Assembly (NCBI GenBank): GCA_016182235.1
Contig: JACOXT010000003.1
Span: 66,209 to 130,208, forward strand
Length of the DNA stretch: 64,000 nucleotides
Origin: Candidatus Levyibacteriota bacterium
GTDB lineage: Bacteria > Patescibacteriota > Microgenomatia > Levybacterales > UBA12049
Direction of reading: 5' to 3'
Below are positions 1,272 to 54,500 of the stretch, in pieces (the stretch's first letter is position 1; each line of letters starts with the position of its first letter). The notes below the pieces were generated by a model. The model had not been told where the DNA came from, searched no databases, and saw nothing but the letters and a program-made list of their open reading frames with translations. The position numbers and the translations under genes are program-made.

Positions 1272-2036
1272 ATGGGAAATCATCAAGAAAGAGAAATAGG
1301 ATTTCATTTAGAGCAAGAAAGGTTTGTTACCAGAAGAATGGTTGTTAAAATAGGAAGCAGCACTATAACTGGCAACACGGAGAATCTTGATGTTAATTTT
1401 ATGGAAAACATCGCCAGACAAGTCAGCTTACTATTTAATCAGGGCATAGAGGTCATGATAGTGACTTCAGGCGCTGTTATAAGTGGAAAGAGAGGTCTAG
1501 GTAGAGTTGATACAGTTCTTGATAAGCAAGTAGCTGCTCTGTATGGACAACCAGAGTTAATTAGCGAGTGGAGAAAAACTTTAAACAATAACGGAGTTAA
1601 AAAGGTGGGACAATTGTTGGTTACGGACATTGATCTTAGGAATGTCAAGACAATTTTAAGCAAATCTTTGCATTTTGGAGTAGTCGTAGTAAATGCAAAC
1701 GATCCTGTTAATAATTACGAGATGAAACAATTCTTAGTTTCTGCAGATAATGATAGATTAGCAGGATTTATTGCAAAGGAAATAGATGCTGATACGTTAC
1801 TTCTCCTAACAGACGTAGATGGAGTTTTAGATAAAAGTGGAAAAGTTATCAATAATTTCTCTACAAAAGAAGAAATAGTAATCTTTTCTGCATCAAGTCT
1901 TGGAACTGGAGGTATGTCTTCAAAAATTCAAGTCGCTCAGGAATTTATCGGAAGAGCAATTATTGCTAATGGAAGATCTGAAAATGTTTTATTAAAAGTT
2001 GCTAGGGGAGAAGAAGTTGGAACACAATTCCATTAA
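1272..2036 (+). CDS. proB: Glutamate 5-kinase (short form, no PUA domain)
   Basis: Amino-acid-kinase motifs VVKIGSSTITG, VTSGAVISGK, NANDPV, ADNDRLAGFIA, LLLLTDVDGV and GTGGMSSKIQVA are present. The SD aaaggggag lies 6 nt before ATG 1272. Confidence 0.85.
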   Translation: MGNHQEREIGFHLEQERFVTRRMVVKIGSSTITGNTENLDVNFMENIARQVSLLFNQGIEVMIVTSGAVISGKRGLGRVDTVLDKQVAALYGQPELISEWRKTLNNNGVKKVGQLLVTDIDLRNVKTILSKSLHFGVVVVNANDPVNNYEMKQFLVSADNDRLAGFIAKEIDADTLLLLTDVDGVLDKSGKVINNFSTKEEIVIFSASSLGTGGMSSKIQVAQEFIGRAIIANGRSENVLLKVARGEEVGTQFH

Positions 2037-2368
2037 AATAATTTAGTTCCTATTTTAGCGTCTCTGTCAGGACGTACCAGAACAACTTTTCCTTCCTCGT
2101 TTGCAACTCCGACTGTTAAGACTTCCGACATAAAGGGACCAATTTGTTTTGGGGGGAAATTTACAACACCCATAACCAAAATTCCTTCTAATTCTTCTTT
2201 GTTATAAAGATCAACAACTTGAACACTTGATTTCTTGATTCCAATTTCTGGACCAAAATCAATAGTCAGTTTATATGCGGGTTTTCTAGCTTCTGGAAAG
2301 TCCTCAACTTCTATAACTTTTCCAACCCTAATATCAACTTTTTCAAAATCACTATAGTTTATTTGCAT
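2033..2368 (-). CDS. Stand-alone tRNA-binding domain protein (CsaA/Trbp111-like)
   Basis: MQINYSDFEKVDIRVGKVIEVEDFPEARKPAYKLTIDFGPEIG... is the OB-fold tRNA-binding domain also found at MetRS C-termini. The MetRS in this window lacks that domain. Confidence 0.85.
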   Translation of the reverse strand: MQINYSDFEKVDIRVGKVIEVEDFPEARKPAYKLTIDFGPEIGIKKSSVQVVDLYNKEELEGILVMGVVNFPPKQIGPFMSEVLTVGVANEEGKVVLVRPDRDAKIGTKLF

Positions 2369-4270: not shown

Positions 4271-5215
4271 TTACGAACCTAGGAAGTAGATTATAGCAAT
4301 TACGAGAACTGCCCAGATTATAGCGGCTGTTAGGAGCGGTTTATCTGAGAGGAGTACTCTTTCCGGGCTTTCACCCTCGCGTTTCTCATAAATATCCTGC
4401 AGATAGCGCATAAGACCATAAACAACCGGGATAATTGTGATCATAAGCCACTTTCTTTGAAAAAATGCCGGAAGAAAATCTGGCAGAAGGACGCTTATTC
4501 CAAGCTTGAATCCGACTGGGTTTTCCAAAAAAGTAAAAAGCGCGTAAGAGACGAAAGTCGAAGTTGCAAATATGGACGCATAGACATCAAGGAGTCTTTC
4601 GGAATAATGTGACAATGTTTTCCTAATATCTGCTATATTTAGTGATTTATTTTGGGAAACAAGCGTTAGTTCGGATCTTCGTTTGCCAATAGCTAAGAAC
4701 AGAGAAAGTGATATGGTTGTGAGAAGTAACCAGACGGAAATATGAAATCCTCCAGCAAACTCTCCGGCGTAAACTCTTAGTATGTAGCCCGAAGCAATTG
4801 CAAGAATATCAACAACCGGAATTGCTTTTAGGACTGTTGAGTAGTAAAGCTGTATTAATAAATATATAACCGTTGACGCGAAGAATGCCGGGGTTACTGT
4901 AAAAGCTATAACTAAGGAGACAGTTGTCAGTAACACCGCAACTACCAAGGCATAAGGCACAGATAAATCTTGGTGAGCCAGTGGACGGAATCTTTTAAAG
5001 GGATGGAGTCTGTCTTTTTTTATATCAAAGATGTCGTTAACTATATATATTGCAGAGGAGAGTATGCAAAAAACAAAAAAAGCAATTAGTACTTTTTGTA
5101 AAGATGTCCAGTCAAAAAGTTCTCCTGAGAATATTATTGCGGCAAATATTGCAACATTTTTTATCCATTGCCTTGGCCTTAGAAGTTTTAAAGTATTAAA
5201 TGCTATTTTTATCAT
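4271..5215 (-). CDS. UbiA-family polyprenyl-phosphate phosphoribosyltransferase-like protein (DPPR synthase-like)
   Basis: RPRQWIKN, NDIFDIKKDRLHPFKRFRPLA (NDxxDxxxD) and a polytopic membrane profile. Confidence 0.8.
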   Translation of the reverse strand: MIKIAFNTLKLLRPRQWIKNVAIFAAIIFSGELFDWTSLQKVLIAFFVFCILSSAIYIVNDIFDIKKDRLHPFKRFRPLAHQDLSVPYALVVAVLLTTVSLVIAFTVTPAFFASTVIYLLIQLYYSTVLKAIPVVDILAIASGYILRVYAGEFAGGFHISVWLLLTTISLSLFLAIGKRRSELTLVSQNKSLNIADIRKTLSHYSERLLDVYASIFATSTFVSYALFTFLENPVGFKLGISVLLPDFLPAFFQRKWLMITIIPVVYGLMRYLQDIYEKREGESPERVLLSDKPLLTAAIIWAVLVIAIIYFLGS

Positions 5216-49561: not shown

Positions 49562-49831
49562 ATGAATGTTAATCAAACTTTAGATGCGCTAGCAATGGAT
49601 TTAAAAAGAGTTGCGCAGGGATATTATAGTGGGTCAGAAGTAATGGCTAGTCGCTTTGTGCAAGAAGCTTTTGTAAGGAAAGAGGAATTAAGAAATTCTA
49701 AACTCAAGCCTTATCTTAGAAAGTTACTTTCAAAAATGGATGAGGTTTTTAAAGAAAAAGATCATAAGAAACTTGCAGAAGATGCTCTGATGTATAGTAC
49801 TCTTTTCCAAAACGCAAGTCTCAAGAAATAG
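49562..49831 (+). CDS. Small helical hypothetical protein (89 aa)
   Basis: An ORF with SD ggagagg upstream of ATG 49562. No motif was recognised. Confidence 0.45.
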   Translation: MNVNQTLDALAMDLKRVAQGYYSGSEVMASRFVQEAFVRKEELRNSKLKPYLRKLLSKMDEVFKEKDHKKLAEDALMYSTLFQNASLKK

Positions 49832-49868: not shown

Positions 49869-49900
49869 AATACTTAAATAATATATATTATTTAAGTATT
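49869..49900. terminator. Perfect 32-bp AT-rich palindrome (bidirectional terminator candidate)
   Basis: The sequence is aatacttaaataatat|atattatttaagtatt. It lies between the convergent 49562 gene and the ancestral nth end. Confidence 0.55.
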
Positions 49901-49964
49901 TTGGTAATATAATTTCTAAGCGGGCAATTTAAGTGCCTGCAGTGGCCGGGGCAGAAGTTGCGGC
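49888..49964 (-). pseudogene. Displaced relic of an nth 3' end (SRNFCPGHCRHLNCPLRNYITKILK*)
   Basis: By hand alignment, 49905-49964 aligns with nth 50747-50806 at 46/60 nt. The frame is kept, and CPGHCRHLNCPLRNYI matches CPAHCKHSNCPLRNYI. Confidence 0.8.
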
Positions 49965-50018
49965 TATTGGTGAAATCGAATACGGAATAAGGATAGGTAT
50001 GGTACAATATAAAAACTT

Positions 50019-50216
50019 ATGAGAAAGATTAGCGTAAATAAAATTATAAAAAACCAGAATAAATATGTTGTTTTAACAAAAGATAAATCAGATATTTTAG
50101 TATCAGGCGCTTCAATTCAGGAGGTTGAAAAAAAGCTAAGTAAGCTAAGCATAAAAGACGTTGTTATAACCTACATCCCGCCGGTAAATAAGTATCTTTC
50201 TCCGCTATGTCGGTAA
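50019..50216 (+). CDS. Small protein (65 aa) upstream of and overlapping the aspartic-protease-like gene
   Basis: An ORF whose ATG lies 10 nt after an extended -10 TGgTACAAT (50000-50008). No motif was recognised with confidence. Confidence 0.5.
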   Translation: MRKISVNKIIKNQNKYVVLTKDKSDILVSGASIQEVEKKLSKLSIKDVVITYIPPVNKYLSPLCR

Positions 50217-50632
50217 TAAGATTTGACTATACGCCTGAAGTTTTTATTAATCCCAAAACTCAAAAAGTTGACTACATTTATAGACCGCTTGTGGATGTTA
50301 GACTTTCTTATAAGCATAATTTTGGTAAAAATATTATTTCATGTTTGCTTGATTCGGGTGCGGATAAAAATTTATTTCCAGCAAGTTGGGGTGAATCTGT
50401 TGGGATAAACATAAAGAAAGGTGAGTCAGTTCGCCATTATGGAATTGGCGCCAATGATTTGATTGCCTATAGACATAAAGTAATGTTGTATATTGGTTCG
50501 TTTTCTTTTGAAGCATATTCTGATTTTAGTTTTGAGCAAAGTTTTCCACTTCTTGGCAGAGAGGGTTTTTTCAAATACTTCAAGGAAATTGTTTTTAATG
50601 AAAAAGGAAGATTTGTAAATCTTAAATATTAA
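50207..50632 (+). CDS. Retropepsin-like (clan AA) aspartic protease family protein
   Basis: The signature LLDSGADKNLFP (D-S-G-A) sits in a 141-aa protein, the size of single-lobe retropepsin-like proteins. Confidence 0.65.
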   Translation: MSVIRFDYTPEVFINPKTQKVDYIYRPLVDVRLSYKHNFGKNIISCLLDSGADKNLFPASWGESVGINIKKGESVRHYGIGANDLIAYRHKVMLYIGSFSFEAYSDFSFEQSFPLLGREGFFKYFKEIVFNEKGRFVNLKY

Positions 50633-50738
50633 ACGAAGCATTTCATCTACTTGGAGGTAGATCCTCGATTATATATTTTCTATAGTACAAGAAGATTCCG
50701 ATACGGGATCGGTGTAGATAAAAGTGAAAGGTAAAAAA

Positions 50739-51359
50739 TTATCTTTTAATATAATTTCTCAGTGGGCAATTGGAGTGTTTACAGTGAGCTGGACAATAGG
50801 TGCGGCCGTAAGCGATCATTCTATTTGTAAAATCAAACCACTCCTCACGCGGTAAAATTTTCATCAAGTCTTGTTCGATTTTCTCTGGATTTTTGTTATT
50901 TGTAAGTCCAAACAAGCGAGAAAGCCGTGTAGCATGAGTATCAACTGCAATACCTTCAGTTATTCCATATAAATTTCCCAAAATAATATTTGCTGTTTTT
51001 CTGCCCACTCCCGGCAGTTTGGTTAGCTCGTTCATTGTTCTTGGAATTTGACCCTTGTATTTTTCATCAATTATTCTCGCAGTTTCTTTTATAAATTTTG
51101 CTTTTTGCCGAAATAGTCCAAGTTGACTTAAATCTTTTTCAAGTTCGCTTAAATTTATGTTTTTATAGTTCTTAATTTCTTTATATTTCTCAAAAAGTTT
51201 TTCAGTTACCTCGTTTACTTTTTTGTCCGTATTTCTAGCTGATAAAATGACTGTAGTTAAAAGCTCAAAAGGAGTTGTGTAATTAAGAATTGTTTTAGAG
51301 TTAGGAAACAATTCTTTTAAAATCTTCAAAATTTCTTCTATTTCTTGTTTTTGACTCAT
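50739..51359 (-). CDS. nth: Endonuclease III
   Basis: HhH-GPD (LTKLPGVGRKTANIILG), VDTHATRLS and a C-terminal Cys cluster CPAHCKHSNC. ATG 51359 is preferred because TGtTATAAT lies 7 nt upstream of it. Confidence 0.9.
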   Translation of the reverse strand: MSQKQEIEEILKILKELFPNSKTILNYTTPFELLTTVILSARNTDKKVNEVTEKLFEKYKEIKNYKNINLSELEKDLSQLGLFRQKAKFIKETARIIDEKYKGQIPRTMNELTKLPGVGRKTANIILGNLYGITEGIAVDTHATRLSRLFGLTNNKNPEKIEQDLMKILPREEWFDFTNRMIAYGRTYCPAHCKHSNCPLRNYIKR

Positions 51360-51366
51360 ATCAGGC

Positions 51367-51375
51367 ATTATAACA
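51367..51375 (-). promoter_or_regulatory. Extended -10 TGtTATAAT, 7 nt before nth ATG 51359
   Basis: The minus strand reads tgttataat-gcctgat-ATG. Confidence 0.55.
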
Positions 51376-51504
51376 TTTGACCCCTTGACATTATAGAGCG
51401 ATATGTGATATAAGAATAACACTCTATAAATATATAAAGAAAAACAATAAGGCTAGTGTTGCCTTTGTTTTTTTGTTGGTAGAGAGACTACGACATATTC
51501 TCAA

Positions 51505-54500
51505 ATGCCAAAGACTGATAACAAAACTGACTCTTTCAGAATCAACTGGGGGAAAGAATATCCCTTTTTACCAAAACTAGATCTTCTTGCCATACAGAAA
51601 AATTCATATAAGTGGTTCATCGAAGAGGGAATCGGCGAAATTCTTAAAGAAATATCTCCTATAGATGATTTTACGGAAAAAAATTGGAGACTGGAGCTTA
51701 AAAGCTATAGAATTGGTAAGCCCGCTATCTCTCCAGAAATTGCCCTTTCAAAGGGTCTAATTTATGACGCCCCGTTATATGTAAAAGCGATTCTTATTAA
51801 TAAAAAAACAAATGGGACAATTAGTCAGGAAGTTTTTTTGGGCGATATTCCCCAAATGACAGAAAGAGGAACCTTCATTATAAATGGAGTTGAGCGTACG
51901 GTGGTTAATCAGCTTGTTCGTTCTCCCGGGGTCTTTTTTACAGCAATTCAAGATAATGTTACTGGCAAAAAATTATATACAGGAGAAATAAGACCTATTC
52001 ATGGATCATGGCTTGAGTTTTCAACTACAAGGTACGAGACGATAACGGTTAAGATAGACAGAAGAAGAAAATTTTTGGCAACGACCTTTTTAAGGGCTAT
52101 TGGAATTTCAACCAATGAAGAAATAAGTGAAGTTTTTAAGAAGCTTGAGATAGAGAATGGCACTTCTTTTATAGAGAATACTTTACAAAAAGATGAAACT
52201 GGAAATTCGAAGGATGCCGTAGTTGAGATATTCAAAAAAATGCATCCTGGAGAGCCAATTGTTTTTGAAAAGGTAAAAGAAAATTTCGACGGCTTGTTCT
52301 TTAACGCTCGCCGCTATGACTTGGGTAAGGTTGGTAGATATAAAATAAATAAAAAGCTCAAAGATTTTCCAGGCTTCTCTATGTCATTGGAGCACACTCT
52401 AACTAGGGGAGATGTCTTAGGAACAATAAGCTATTTAATAAAACTGGCTCAAGGATATGATGGAGTTGACGATATTGACAGTCTTGCCCATAGGCGGGTT
52501 AGGAGGGTTGGAGAATTGGTTGCCACAACAGCATTTAGAGTCGGAGCATTAAGACTCGAACGCAGCATCAAAGAAAGAATGAGTCTTATTCAGCCAGACG
52601 TGCCCCCCTCGATAGGCAGCCTTATAAATGCAAAGCCGATCATGGCCTCAATTAATGAATTTTTTAGAACATCTCAGCTTTCAACAATATTAGATCAGAC
52701 AAATCCACTTTCTGAGATTGACAATTTGAACAGGTTAACCGTGATGGGAACAGGCGGTATTAGTCGAGAAAGAGCAGCTTTCTCAATAAGAGATATTAAT
52801 AGCTCTCAATACGGAAGAATATGCCCAATTAGAAGCCCAGAAGGACCAAATATTGGATTAGTTACTTACTTGGCACTTTATTCTAAGATAAATGAATACG
52901 GATTTTTGGAAAGTCCTTATAGAAAAGTAGTTAAAATTAAAAAAGGAAATGATATTTTTGTTAAAGCAACAAATGAAATTATTTATTTGAGTGTGGATGA
53001 CGAAAGGCAATATCATATTACTCATGCGGGAGTATTGTCAAACGATACCATAAATGGCGATCGCGTTCCAGTTAGATATCAAGGTGGATTCAAAGAAGTA
53101 GAGAAAGAAAAAGTTGATTTTGTTGATGTTGTCCCAAGGCAGGTTGTAGGGACATCCGCATCTCTTATTCCATTTGTTTCCCATGATGAAACAAATAGGG
53201 CTCTCATGGGTACTCACATGCAGTGTCAGGCAGTGCCTCTTGTTGCCCCAGCTAGTCCGGTGGTTGGTACAGATATGGAGAAAGTAATTGCCTCAGTTAT
53301 GGGTAGAATAATTAGAGCCCCATTCGATGGAAAGATAATATACGCTGACGCTAATAAGGTAACAATAAAAGGCAGCAAGAAGGACGAAGAAGAAACATAC
53401 GACATAGAGTCATTTAAAAGAACATCGCAGGCAACATCTTATACGCAAAAAACCATGGTTGTCGAGGGACAGAAAGTTAAAAAAGGAGATATTTTGGTTG
53501 ATGGACCCTCTTCAGATAAAGGTGAATTGGCGCTTGGGCAAAATTTATTAATTGCTTATGCTTCTTTAGATGGTTTGGGATACGAAGACGCAGTTGTTGT
53601 TTCGGACAGACTTGTTCGTGAAAATGTTCTTTCATCGATTCATATTGAAAAACATGAGGCATCGGTAGTTGAGACTAAGCTTGGTCCGGAAGAAACCACG
53701 AGAGACATTCCAAACATTTCCGAGGAAGATCTAGCCAATCTTGATGAGGAAGGAATAATTGTTGTAGGAAGTGATGTTGTTCCGGGAGATATACTTGTTG
53801 GCAAGATAGCTCCAAAAGGAGAAACAGAGTTAACAGCCGAAGAGAGACTTCTTCGAGCAATTTTTGGAGAGCAGGCAAGAGAAGTAAGAGATACTTCCTT
53901 AAGGATGCCGCATGGTGAACGGGGAACAGTTATAAGTGTTCAAGTATTGGATAGAAGAAAAGGAGATGAACTCGAGCCTGGAACTTTGAGAAAAATTATT
54001 ATTGAAGTCGCACAATTTAGGCATGTTGTGGTTGGAGATAAGCTTGCAGGCAGACATGGAAATAAAGGAGTAATTTCTAAGATCTTGCCTGTTGCGGATA
54101 TGCCTTGTCTTGCAGATGGCACGCCGATTGATATAGTAATATCTCCCATAAGCGTATTGGCGCGAATGAACTTAGGCCAGCTACTTGAAGCACATCTTGG
54201 ATGGGCGTGTTCAAAGTTGAATAAAAAAGTGGGAATTCCTGTCTTTGAAGAGATTGGTGAGGAAAGAATTGTCGCATCTCTTAGGATGGCTAATCTTCCA
54301 CACGATGGCAAGACAGTTTTATATGATGGTAGGACTGGAGAGCCTTATGAAAATCCAGTCGTTGTTGGAATAGAGTATATTATGAAGCTTATCCATATGG
54401 TTGAAGATAAAACCCACGCAAGAAGTACTGGTCCTTATTCTTTGGTTACTCAGCAGCCGCTTGGAGGCAAAGCACAAATGGGAGGACAGCGTTTGGGAGA

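Follow-up and report, generated by a model that had tools for sequence, protein, structure and literature searches.

Genes and features of the nth locus

The window, i.e. the whole stretch of 64,000 nucleotides that was analysed, comes from a groundwater Levybacterium. It contains a gene for endonuclease III (nth) whose product matches the Pfam family HhH-GPD (1.8e-21) and is 100% identical to the NCBI 'endonuclease III' entry P0035. Downstream of nth lie a cassette of two small overlapping genes, a short orphan fragment that resembles the nth 3' end (referred to as the relic), a palindrome, and a gene of 89 aa (Table 1).

Table 1. Features of the nth locus, with positions in the window.
Feature	Position	Strand	Remarks
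Left-flank gene, 89 aa	49562..49831	+	Convergent to nth, conserved; marks the resident left flank
Palindrome, 32 bp, perfect, AT-rich	49869..49900	.	Candidate bidirectional terminator; identical to its reverse complement; overlaps the stop and the final codons of the relic frame
Stop-proximal end of the relic, TKILK*	49888..49905	-	From the ORF list, codon coordinates; AT-rich
Orphan nth C-terminal relic, VFDFTN-SRNFCPGHCRHLNCPLRNYI	49906..49983	-	5-codon in-frame gap relative to live nth
GC3-saturated relic core, RNFCPGHCRH, 10 codons	49933..49962	-	Third positions G/C in 10/10
13-nt identical run, TAATATAATTTCT	49905..49917 = 50747-50759	.	Stop-proximal repeat edge; candidate crossover site
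Extended -10 promoter, TGGTACAAT	50000..50008	+	Start of homology between cassette copies
ORF65, DUF5678-like, 65 aa; putative antitoxin/regulator	50019..50216	+	
ORF141, retropepsin-like aspartic protease; putative toxin/effector	50207..50632	+	
Hairpin ATCTAC-ttggag-GTAGAT, followed by a T-rich stretch	50645..50662	+	Candidate cassette terminator; read from the sequence
Terminator-like hairpin, CCGATCCCGTATCGG	50698..50712	-	Just 3' of live nth; from a terminator scan
Live nth, endonuclease III, 206 aa	50739..51359	-	Divergent from rpoB
Live counterpart of the relic, FDFTNRMIAYGRTYCPAHCKHSNCPLRNYI	50748..50837	-	

The window derives from a metagenome-assembled genome, the samples of which contain several coexisting Levybacteria. 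Two Levybacterial strains occurring together might thus have been joined at the nth tail by an assembly or binning artefact. A contig assembled independently by Logan from an SRA run matches the window base for base over 49871-52284 (2414/2414), which rules out an assembly chimera for the nth/cassette region. Moreover, repeats of 77% identity would not be merged by an assembler, and the cassette-at-nth architecture was assembled three times, in L118, L119 and L120. L001 and L119 come from groundwater runs, an example being SRR12113430. An artefact therefore deserves next to no credence.

No Pfam family was found for the 89-aa flank gene. Its counterpart is kept in L117, where a 95-aa gene with 75% aa identity lies convergent downstream of nth. 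The adjoining palindrome, described in an earlier note on this DNA as perfect and as resembling an original bidirectional terminator shared with the convergent gene, is indeed a perfect 32-mer. It folds as a 14-bp hairpin on both strands (z of -3.7 and -4.1), which together with the convergent orthologue in L117 supports the proposed role. The palindrome is missing from the other fetched loci save L001, which represents the same organism. The 20-nt hairpin motif 3' of the live nth also occurs 3' of nth in L111 and L112, both without this cassette. A function of this motif as general attachment site was discarded since it is present at nth loci only and not at other cassette loci. No RNA gene was detected in repeats or spacer by Rfam matches at gathering thresholds (whole window; L012, L045, L075 and L078).

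A discrete cassette encoding a retropepsin-like protein

Both small genes exist as previously described. They overlap by 10 nt and possess their own extended -10 promoter, which reads TGnTAtAAT in homologous cassettes. In an alignment of cassette copies, conservation begins at TATGnTAtAAT and stops at the stop codon of ORF141, with nothing conserved upstream. As homology is limited to this block, the cassette is a discrete unit, which spans 0.64 kb from the extended -10 promoter through the ORF141 stop codon. No second copy was found within the window.

ORF65 matches Pfam DUF5678 (PF18929) with E = 0.0075 and 16.5 bits, which is below the gathering cut-off of 23.2. The same family is matched by three of 15 homologues, the best being P0169 (E = 1e-7). 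The C-terminal tail of ORF65, YIPPVxKYLSPLCR, is conserved. A fold search with the AF2 model of ORF65 (pLDDT 79.5) returned no PDB match and no known antitoxin fold, and a literature search on DUF5678 yielded nothing relevant. The AF2 model of ORF141 (pLDDT 93) gave as best Foldseek matches Rickettsia APRc, the HIV, EIAV and XMRV proteases and Ddi1 (E 3e-5 to 1e-3). In 34 ORF141 homologues, residues D49, G51, G79, G117 and R118 show no variation, and S50 and A52 almost none. The motifs D49-S-G-A, G79-I-G and G117-R fit the clan AA retropepsin pattern, i.e. D-[ST]-G-A, the flap G-x-G and G-R-[DNE]. Fold and motifs (D-S-G-A, G-I-G and G-R) are thus like those of bacterial retropepsin-like proteases such as Rickettsia APRc (PDB 5c9f). 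The match of ORF141 to Pfam Asp_protease_2 reached only E = 0.028, and that to PDC-M08B of PADLOC was weak. Pfam, NCBIfam and PADLOC scans and the fold search detected no recombinase, transposase or integrase in the cassette, and there is no site-specific recombinase between 49562 and rpoB.

The cassette has the layout of a toxin-antitoxin module, as its two small genes overlap, run in the same direction, possess a promoter of their own and are distributed patchily over dozens of contexts. In L118, L121 and L124, the protease gene is deleted or truncated and the small gene is kept. Overlapping genes, own promoter, patchiness and decay of the protease gene with survival of the small one are features shared with type II toxin-antitoxin systems; the lack of any known antitoxin fold in ORF65 sets the cassette apart from them. 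Neither cassette protein falls into a recognised toxin or antitoxin family or fold, and no toxin-antitoxin family with a retropepsin toxin is known to be established; a literature search for such a family yielded only an archaeal CRISPR survey. Judged from its sequence, the cassette is probably a toxin-antitoxin-like or defence module.

The relic stems from a diverged, functional nth allele

Alignment of the relic (49905-49964) with the live nth tail gave the 46 identical positions in 60 nt stated in the earlier note. The local alignment score was 51, as compared to 18.4 ± 2.4 (maximum 26) in 300 shuffles, and a repeat search independently recovered the same pair (family D4). Both tail peptides quoted earlier match the ORF list, and all three cysteines are kept in the relic. 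While the plus-strand match is real, the minus-strand codons occupy 49906-49965, one base off the position originally given. Past an in-frame gap of five codons, similarity resumes in the VFDFTN block and extends the Nth-like span to 49906-49983, inside a 39-codon open frame (49888..50007, minus strand).

The relic was scored against 119 Levybacterial Nth proteins, as the earlier note had suggested. Its nth frame reached a mean score of 94.6; shuffled relic peptides gave 23.7 ± 2.8 and the other five frames 19-24, so that the relic does resemble Nth proteins better than random frames. It was also matched, at E = 5e-9, by an HMM of 86 Nth tails. The relic carries the Cys-x3-Cys-x4-Cys pattern of Levybacterial Nth (Cys-x3-Cys-x4-Cys-Pro-Leu), with similarity confined to one frame; the G of its CP[G]HC is absent among the 120 Nth homologues listed.

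Comparison of relic and live tail yielded a pS of 0.77-0.83 and a pN of 0.13-0.14 (26-27 aligned codons). Synonymous differences numbered 12-12.5 and non-synonymous ones 8.5-9, with 19% synonymous expected (p about 1e-4). In a frame control, this synonymous pattern without stop codons was seen in the nth frame only, and the relic has neither a stop codon nor a frameshift in 26 codons. As the differences are mostly synonymous, the two tails are nth alleles that diverged under purifying selection while both were functional. The relic is thus a genuine Nth C-terminal remnant from a functional, diverged nth, as had been proposed, and two diverged alleles of functional origin flank the cassette. 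To call the nth tail 'duplicated', as was done before, is misleading because the tails are different alleles that were not made on the spot. They also differ in their surroundings: the relic end TKILK* is not homologous to the live nth end KR*, and the 3' flank is the palindrome in one case and the hairpin motif in the other. The live nth has its end restored, and the diverged in-frame orphan end lies at the opposite junction. The live nth tail diverges from its relatives as much as the rest of the gene does.

These data bear on a true insertion with long target duplication, by which about 95 nt of the resident tail would have been duplicated in place and the spare copy would then have decayed. 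This mode is described for restriction-modification cassettes (PMC2853133). Near-identical repeats at some cassette loci (97/98 at L023, 59/60, 51/52 and 25/26) speak for it, and a 61-nt groEL tail repeat of 92% identity elsewhere in the window, at 845-905 and 2386-2446, fits as well. For the nth tail we judge it improbable. Neutral decay predicts that pN rises with pS, contrary to the values above and to the intact frame; drift in a genome of 37% GC would lower the GC content of the relic, whose core is G/C at 10/10 third positions; and the copies bear different 3' flanks. Duplication in place with subsequent decay was therefore rejected on pS/pN, the frame control and the relic composition.

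The nth site in other genomes

Synteny of rpoB and nth is conserved in L117 and L118. L117 and L113, which belong to other species, have this synteny together with a single nth tail, no relic and no cassette. In L118, a second Levybacterium, a cassette of the same subfamily occupies the same nth site and is accompanied by an Nth relic of its own, which scored 51.6 (16-21 in the other frames). The relic/live boundary of L118 is marked by an exact 14-nt block (P = 0.01) whose sequence differs from the 13-nt run of the window, the latter taken alone not being significant (P = 0.29). Homology to L118 includes the first ~45 nt past the ORF141 stop.

Between the window and L118, pS was 0.33-0.56 for the cassette, 0.80 for nth and 0.67 for rpoB, and the live nth tails showed no raised similarity toward their 3' ends. 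The lower pS of the cassette and the lack of a 3' gradient indicate that the cassette moved and that the live tail did not travel along with it. As the two relics are only about 60% identical (hand count), their common descent is not established. No same-species empty site, circular junction or tandem array was seen.

Cassettes and flanking repeats at other loci

The survey comprised 57 distinct cassette loci, from CPR bacteria plus a few archaea, and 138 control positions. Direct repeats (24-98 nt, 71-99% identity) flank the cassette at 15 of the 57 loci and none of the controls; the repeat in the window measures 60-95 nt at 77% identity. Repeats thus recur at many targets, and they derive from locus-specific gene ends, e.g. 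a cyclophilin tail, a Clp-like tail, a comM-like head and a RibD_C head. Several of these pairs also display a synonymous bias. The L019 relic is identical at 40/44 positions to the live allele of another genome and at 31/44 to its own. At L021, cyclophilin-tail relics bracket the cassette with no cyclophilin gene adjoining. At about three quarters of the cassette loci, no repeat was detected. Flanking repeats were likewise not found at five other small gene pairs in the fetched loci (Phd/ParE-type, TumE/MJ0235, DUF2283 and a second 67+150-aa pair), this sample being too small to generalise.

The question raised in the earlier note, whether the cassette is always next to an nth tail, was answered in the negative. 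The nearest cassette relatives occupy other loci, some of them without any repeat. The L002 copy (65% identical) lies between rpsJ and rplC in antisense orientation and lacks an S10-tail repeat (score 18, shuffles 19.7), and the L109 and L110 cassettes (79-82%) reside at non-nth loci without repeats. With the Nth-tail HMM, no nth relic was found to have been carried along to non-nth cassette loci.

A DNA transposon or insertion sequence was rejected on the grounds that there is no transposase, no conserved ends and no fixed repeat length (24-98 nt). Site-specific integration by an integrase or Xer protein acting in trans would make the cassette a cis-mobilisable remnant and the nth tail its att site. 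Such a process leads to the same architecture, with a restored gene end and an orphan end opposite, and the short identical blocks (13 nt here, 14 nt in L118) and a Phage_integrase gene adjoining the distant homologue L011 would be in line with it. We consider it very improbable nonetheless. The unit encodes no recombinase; repeats at different loci share no common sequence; the present data largely show no shared core; neither terminal inverted repeats nor conserved element ends exist outside the -10-to-stop block; and the hairpin motif 3' of nth is missing from other cassette loci.

Composition and origin of the relic

A comparison of GC3 between the whole relic and the genome (0.615 versus 0.29) was downgraded because live nth tails are themselves GC3-rich (0.39-0.52 versus 0.29 for the genome), and a like-for-like comparison over 10 codons was used instead. 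GC3 amounts to 10/10 in the relic core and to 25/50 for the same 10 codons in five live Levybacterial tails (P = 0.001). The core of the L118 relic shows 7/8, and both cores pooled show 17/18 versus 25/50 in live tails (P = 7e-5); given the GC3 enrichment of live tails, the argument depends on these 18 codons. From the stop-proximal end up to codon L26, the third positions of the window relic turn AT-rich (2/9 GC). On account of its GC3 the core appears to have been imported with the cassette, and the relic looks like a chimera of this imported core and a resident stop-proximal end plus palindrome. The end TKILK* would then represent the original extreme C-terminus of the resident nth. Alternatively, a G-rich element upstream of the promoter could be under selection and account for the GC-rich core. 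At other repeat-bearing loci, GC3 asymmetry followed no consistent pattern.

That the whole relic is the displaced original tail of the resident is doubtful in view of the core GC3 (10/10 versus 25/50) and the similar bias of the L118 relic. Displacement could occur by homology-facilitated illegitimate recombination, which is known from competent bacteria and has been put forward to explain orphan 3' ends (PMC5361080, PMC3240628). Linear DNA bearing the cassette along with a segment of a donor nth (tail and 3' flank included) would use the nth body as homologous anchor, and the far cassette end would be joined illegitimately inside the resident tail, which is pushed aside as with the orphan ends of Rhs, CDI and T6SS loci. 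Displacement also accounts for two alleles of functional origin and for a relic still contiguous with the resident flank, and a spacing of 18 nt, like that in a native operon, separates the L016 and L044 relics from the adjoining gene. It is, however, at odds with several observations. The relic cores in two low-GC genomes (GC3 17/18) are unlike five live tails. The live tail has diverged like the gene body, without a 3' gradient between the window and L118 despite their closer cassettes. The exact 14-nt block at the relic/live boundary of L118 is left unexplained, the L019 relic resembles a foreign allele, and the L021 relics have no cognate gene. We therefore regard displacement as unlikely.

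A model for cassette insertion at nth

In Campbell-type insertion-duplication, non-replicating DNA integrates through one region of homology. It is familiar from laboratory use and from plasmids with long identical homology. Such integration predicts an insert bracketed by two hybrid copies of the homology, each half donor and half recipient. We propose, with somewhat less than even confidence, that Campbell-type (ends-in) recombination between a cassette-borne copy of an nth tail and the resident tail put the cassette beside nth. The cassette would have arrived as DNA that also bore a short nth-tail copy from another lineage, possibly in circular form, and host recombination between this copy and the resident nth tail would have inserted it. 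A single Campbell-type or 'ends-in' crossover may have taken place at a short identical stretch near ...RNYI. On the left side, the product would consist of the resident flank, the palindrome and the resident extreme end, fused to the imported tail core (the orphan relic). On the right side, the cassette and an imported 3' spacer would be followed by the intact resident nth, each tail copy thereby having an imported half.

The present case would differ from Campbell integration in the laboratory in being natural, in being repeated across lineages and in involving about 100 nt at 77% identity. Recombination over such a stretch should be very inefficient, which counts against the model. In addition, a second route to new sites must exist, as many loci have no repeats and the nearest cassette relatives are located at non-nth loci. 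In a more general form, which we put forward only tentatively, a recombinase-less cassette may use a fragment of a housekeeping gene end as portable homology arm and so re-insert at the same terminus in diverged CPR lineages, each event leaving a chimeric orphan tail and an intact target gene.

Comparison with known systems

Some integrative elements insert at gene 3' ends and bring a replacement end along, e.g. phage 21 and e14 in icd and ICESt1/CIME in fda. As with these and with tRNA-targeting elements, the target gene at nth is kept intact by an element-borne end, and a diverged in-frame orphan lies at the other junction. Those elements, however, encode or borrow an integrase and have a defined att core, whereas the 0.64-kb unit has no recombinase and its loci have no core in common. 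Islands targeting tRNA genes are discussed in PMC2853133.

Among known systems, restriction-modification gene complexes come nearest, for which 'insertion with long target duplication' has been described (Nobusato et al. 2000, Gene 259:99; Furuta, Abe and Kobayashi 2010, PMC2853133; reviewed in PMC3874152). Common to both are an 'addiction-type' selfish cassette without transposase or integrase, long direct repeats of a local target, which in the restriction-modification cases measure tens to hundreds of bp and often overlap a gene 3' end, and a target that is single-copy in cassette-free genomes (here L117 and L113, from other species). The published cases stem mostly from naturally transformable bacteria (PMC2853133, PMC3874152). 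In restriction-modification cases, however, the two repeats hardly differ from one another or from the empty site, whereas here (77%) and at several other loci they are diverged alleles with a signature of purifying selection, one copy of which looks imported. Here, CPR bacteria serve as hosts, and the cargo pairs a DUF5678-like with a retropepsin-like protein instead of a restriction-modification system. For those cassettes, the authors hypothesised a life cycle of invasion, amplification via repeats, release and re-invasion (PMC2853133, PMC3874152).

Effector-immunity arrays of the Rhs, CDI and T6SS kinds contain orphan 3' ends that have been attributed to homology-facilitated illegitimate recombination (PMC5361080, citing de Vries and Wackernagel 2002 and Prudhomme et al. 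2002 for the process). There, too, a displaced 3' end of other ancestry lies beyond newly gained small genes, and the mechanism proposed involves one homologous anchor and one illegitimate junction. The variable 3' end of those arrays, however, is functional cargo (a toxin tip), and the orphan keeps its immunity gene. At nth, a housekeeping gene for DNA repair is targeted by a convergent cargo that bears no relation to it, and the composition points to an imported orphan core.

Implications

CPR bacteria have tiny genomes with few recognisable transposons, and the routes by which they gain genes are accordingly poorly understood. The repeats which bracket the cassette at about one quarter of its sites are often two different alleles and not fresh duplicates. 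For annotation, orphaned tails or heads whose dN/dS, taken against the neighbouring copy, lies well below 1 would provide a signature of recent horizontal insertion. The DUF5678 plus retropepsin-like pair represents an uncharacterised candidate toxin-antitoxin or defence system, as predicted from its sequence. If cassettes do carry portable homology arms, addiction or defence cassettes would spread through host recombination alone; this would explain how they come to lie at the ends of essential genes without breaking them, and why short in-frame 'ghost' gene ends occur in intergenic DNA. The nth locus would then provide the first sequence-level trace of the 'release and re-invasion' hitherto hypothesised for mobile cassettes of the restriction-modification or toxin-antitoxin type, and ultra-small genomes, which are largely without classical mobile elements, would have in this process a general means of acquiring genes.

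Organization of the nth region

The window derives from a Candidatus Levybacteria metagenome-assembled genome (GC 36.9%), and nth relatives were found at a protein identity of 81% at most. Features of the region are listed in the table.

Features of the nth region and degraded protease genes at related loci
Feature	Position	Strand	Remarks
Conserved 89-aa gene	49562..49831	+	no Pfam family
Perfect 32-bp palindrome	49869-49900
Open 39-codon frame (relic)	49888..50007	-	residues 9-34, VFDFTNSRNFCPGHCRHLNCPLRNYI
Extended -10 box	50000-50008		TGGTACAAT
ORF65	50019..50216
ORF141	50207..50632		10-nt overlap with ORF65
Spacer ORF141 to nth, 106 nt			opposed hairpins at 50645-50662 (+) and 50698-50712 (-)
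Live nth	50739..51359	-	divergent from rpoB
Protease gene, L118	2607-2745		254-nt internal deletion
Protease gene, L121	4189-4398		69-aa truncation
Protease gene, L124	4189-4398		69-aa truncation

The 89-aa protein weakly matches an internal part of a PADLOC model for a Type II restriction enzyme (E = 1.2e-5), and in relatives the orthologous gene adjoins a DUF5674 gene. Beyond the 3' end of nth (50696-50715, -) is a hairpin motif, ACACCGATCCCRTATCGGAA, which recurs at locus L111 (2836-2852). There the usual nth stop is missing, the reading frame runs through the motif as ...CPLNHFVVSTPIPYRKPI..., and the next genes are an 88-aa plus DUF2283 pair. A near-identical C-terminal extension, ...VVS[TI]P[IN]PYRN[PS]IDD..., is known here from protein alone in Nth proteins P0058, P0103, P0130 and P0140; P0042 belongs with the same observation. 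In L117, a relative with rpoB-nth synteny, the spacer from nth to the next gene (4625-4990) lacks the cassette and contains a 47-aa antisense ORF and three copies of a ~25-nt motif (ggttcRRagctMaaC...ccgggg-like), which may represent another type of small repeat element using this hotspot.

The relic is the tail of a once functional nth allele

The similarity between the relic and the live nth tail (46/60 nt) described in the earlier note gave a local alignment score of 51 versus 18.4 ± 2.4 for shuffles, and an independent repeat search of the window recovered the same pair. Against 119 Levybacterial Nth proteins the relic frame reached a mean score of 94.6, versus 19-24 for the other five frames; shuffled relic peptides scored 23.7 ± 2.8, and an Nth-tail HMM detected the relic with E = 5e-9. 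The similarity runs beyond the stretch originally delimited (49905-49964) as far as an FDFTN block, which lies past a 5-codon in-frame gap. Since a Logan assembly contig matches 49871-52284 at 100%, this region is not an assembly chimera.

Over 26-27 aligned codons, relic and live tail show 12-12.5 synonymous and 8.5-9 non-synonymous differences (pS 0.77-0.83, pN 0.13-0.14; binomial p = 1.4e-4). In the 60-nt repeat, whose bounds were set by nucleotide identity alone, many synonymous differences (8.5/14) without stops occur only in the nth frame. A spare copy drifting neutrally is expected to accumulate non-synonymous changes at the same pace as synonymous ones; with a live dN/dS near 0.1 assumed, such a scenario would need a change of about 7% in the relic versus about 70% at synonymous sites of the live gene. 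Because pS greatly exceeds pN, and in the nth frame only, the two tails diverged as parts of working genes, in agreement with the proposal that the relic once belonged to a functional, diverged nth. A duplication made in place is rejected on the same pS and pN values, the frame control and the relic's composition.

The cassette and its proteins

Nucleotide homology between cassette copies extends from the -10 box to the ORF141 stop codon, so the moving unit is about 0.64 kb long. At several loci this stop codon overlaps the stop of a convergent target gene or opens the flanking repeat (L016, 4417-4420; L070, 1730-1732), and the 3' boundary of the unit is therefore the stop codon, to the base. 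A scan of the encoded proteins revealed no recombinase in the cassette.

ORF141 has 34 detected homologues with invariant D49, G51, G79 and G117-R118 and nearly invariant S50 and A52. Its AlphaFold model (pLDDT 93) matches the folds of Rickettsia APRc, retroviral proteases and Ddi1. Pfam matches of both ORFs were sub-threshold only (Asp_protease_2, RVP, DUF5678); one ORF65 homologue matches DUF5678 with E = 1e-7. The ORF65 model comprises a small alpha/beta domain and a conserved floppy C-terminal tail, and a fold search against the PDB returned no match. Conservation is highest in the C-terminal 14 residues, YIPPVxKYLSPLCR (50171-50216), which are poorly ordered in the model and whose coding sequence overlaps the ORF141 start; this tail might inhibit the protease or serve as its pseudo-substrate.

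L118, L121 and L124 all retain an intact small DUF5678-like gene next to a degraded protease gene. The L121 and L124 cassettes sit in islands with many further toxin-antitoxin pairs, e.g. Phd/YefM-ParE and TumE/MJ0235. PADLOC gave a weak match to the candidate system PDC-M08B. Protease decay and patchy distribution suggest a putative function as toxin-antitoxin-like or defence module.

Cassettes at nth and at other loci

In L118, from a different Levybacterial genome that was assembled three times, a cassette of the same subfamily is found at the corresponding position, between nth and the adjoining gene (ORF65 83-84% identical). Directly upstream of its -10 box lies its own Nth relic, YFPAHRAHTECPLKMLIQA* (score 51.6 versus 16-21 in other frames), which shares with its live tail an exact 14-nt block (P = 0.01 for such a run) followed by 14/29 identity (hand count). 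Between the window and L118, pS is 0.33-0.56 for the cassette, 0.80 for nth and 0.67 for rpoB, and the live nth tails show no raised similarity at their 3' ends. The cassette is therefore younger than the host split, and the live tail was not brought along.

Homologous loci from genomes (22) and metagenomes (74) were fetched, plus contigs of individual homologues. They showed no fixed association of the cassette with nth, a link the earlier note had raised: the nearest relatives of this cassette lie elsewhere. In another Levybacterium (L002, 4370-5436; GCA_016182425, JACPGP010000030) a 65%-identical copy with a 56-aa hydrophobic ORF lies antisense between rpsJ (S10) and rplC (L3), splitting the normally contiguous S10 ribosomal-protein operon; no flanking repeat was found there.

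At 15 of the 57 distinct loci whose flanks were adequate, direct repeats tightly bracket the cassette (24-98 nt, 71-99% identity); none of 138 random control positions on the same contigs reached their score. These repeats are locus-specific gene ends (cyclophilin tail, Clp-like ATPase tail, comM-like head, RibD_C head), and several pairs show a synonymous bias like that of the window. The orphan copy at L019 matches the live allele of a different genome at 40/44 positions versus 31/44 for its own, the two host genes being 53-85% identical. At L021 the cassette lies between cyclophilin-tail relics, and no cyclophilin gene adjoins it. At L045 (337-479 and 1142-1236) the repeat is present in three copies of 90-98% identity, two partly overlapping in tandem upstream and one downstream, which could be a trace of amplification through repeats. 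About three quarters of the cassette loci lack repeats; thus either new sites are entered by another route or repeats erode.

Mode of insertion

GC3 of the whole relic is 0.615 (genome, 0.29). As live nth tails are themselves enriched (0.39-0.52), a like-for-like comparison of the ten codons R..H was used: third positions are G/C in 10/10 codons of the window relic and 7/8 of the L118 relic, versus 25/50 in five live tails (pooled P = 7e-5). Toward its stop codon the window relic is AT-rich (2/9). With this switch the relic looks chimeric, its composition pointing to a GC-rich core that belongs to the cassette and, fused to the palindrome, a stop-proximal end (TKILK*) of resident origin. Selection on some G-rich element upstream of the promoter, not ancestry, might instead underlie the GC3 bias; the core would still go with the cassette.

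The best fit, which is tentative, is a Campbell-type (ends-in) crossover, in which a cassette-borne nth-tail copy would recombine with the resident tail to leave two hybrid copies. It is favoured because it explains why both alleles derive from functional genes and why composition changes within the relic; it also covers the exact block at the L118 junction, insertion at one target in two lineages, the relics of foreign alleles found elsewhere and the absent recombinase. The main rival, which we consider doubtful, is displacement of the resident tail by homology-facilitated illegitimate recombination, a mechanism put forward to explain orphan 3' ends of T6SS and Rhs arrays (PMC5361080); the layout fits, but the relic composition conflicts with it and the live nth has no 3' similarity gradient. 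An integrase acting in trans is unlikely, given that repeats at different loci share no core. Searches for a same-species empty site, a circular junction and a donor allele found none.

The nearest described phenomenon is the 'insertion with long target duplication' of restriction-modification cassettes, mostly in competent bacteria, for which release and re-invasion were hypothesised without evidence (PMC2853133). The nth case has cargo of the same type, and its repeats are likewise long and variable, but they are not near-identical, and the case is therefore counted as a new variant rather than a member. Elsewhere in the window, the terminal 61 nt of groEL, stop codon included (845-905), recur 1.48 kb downstream (2386-2446; 56/61 identity, score 97 versus 18.8 for shuffles). 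The interval contains a hairpin, a promoter (TTGACA/TATAAT), a leader of ~300 nt and two genes, AA_kinase (1272..2036, +) and tRNA_bind (2033..2368, -). Thus the DUF5678 cassette is not the only insert in this genome that a gene-tail repeat brackets.
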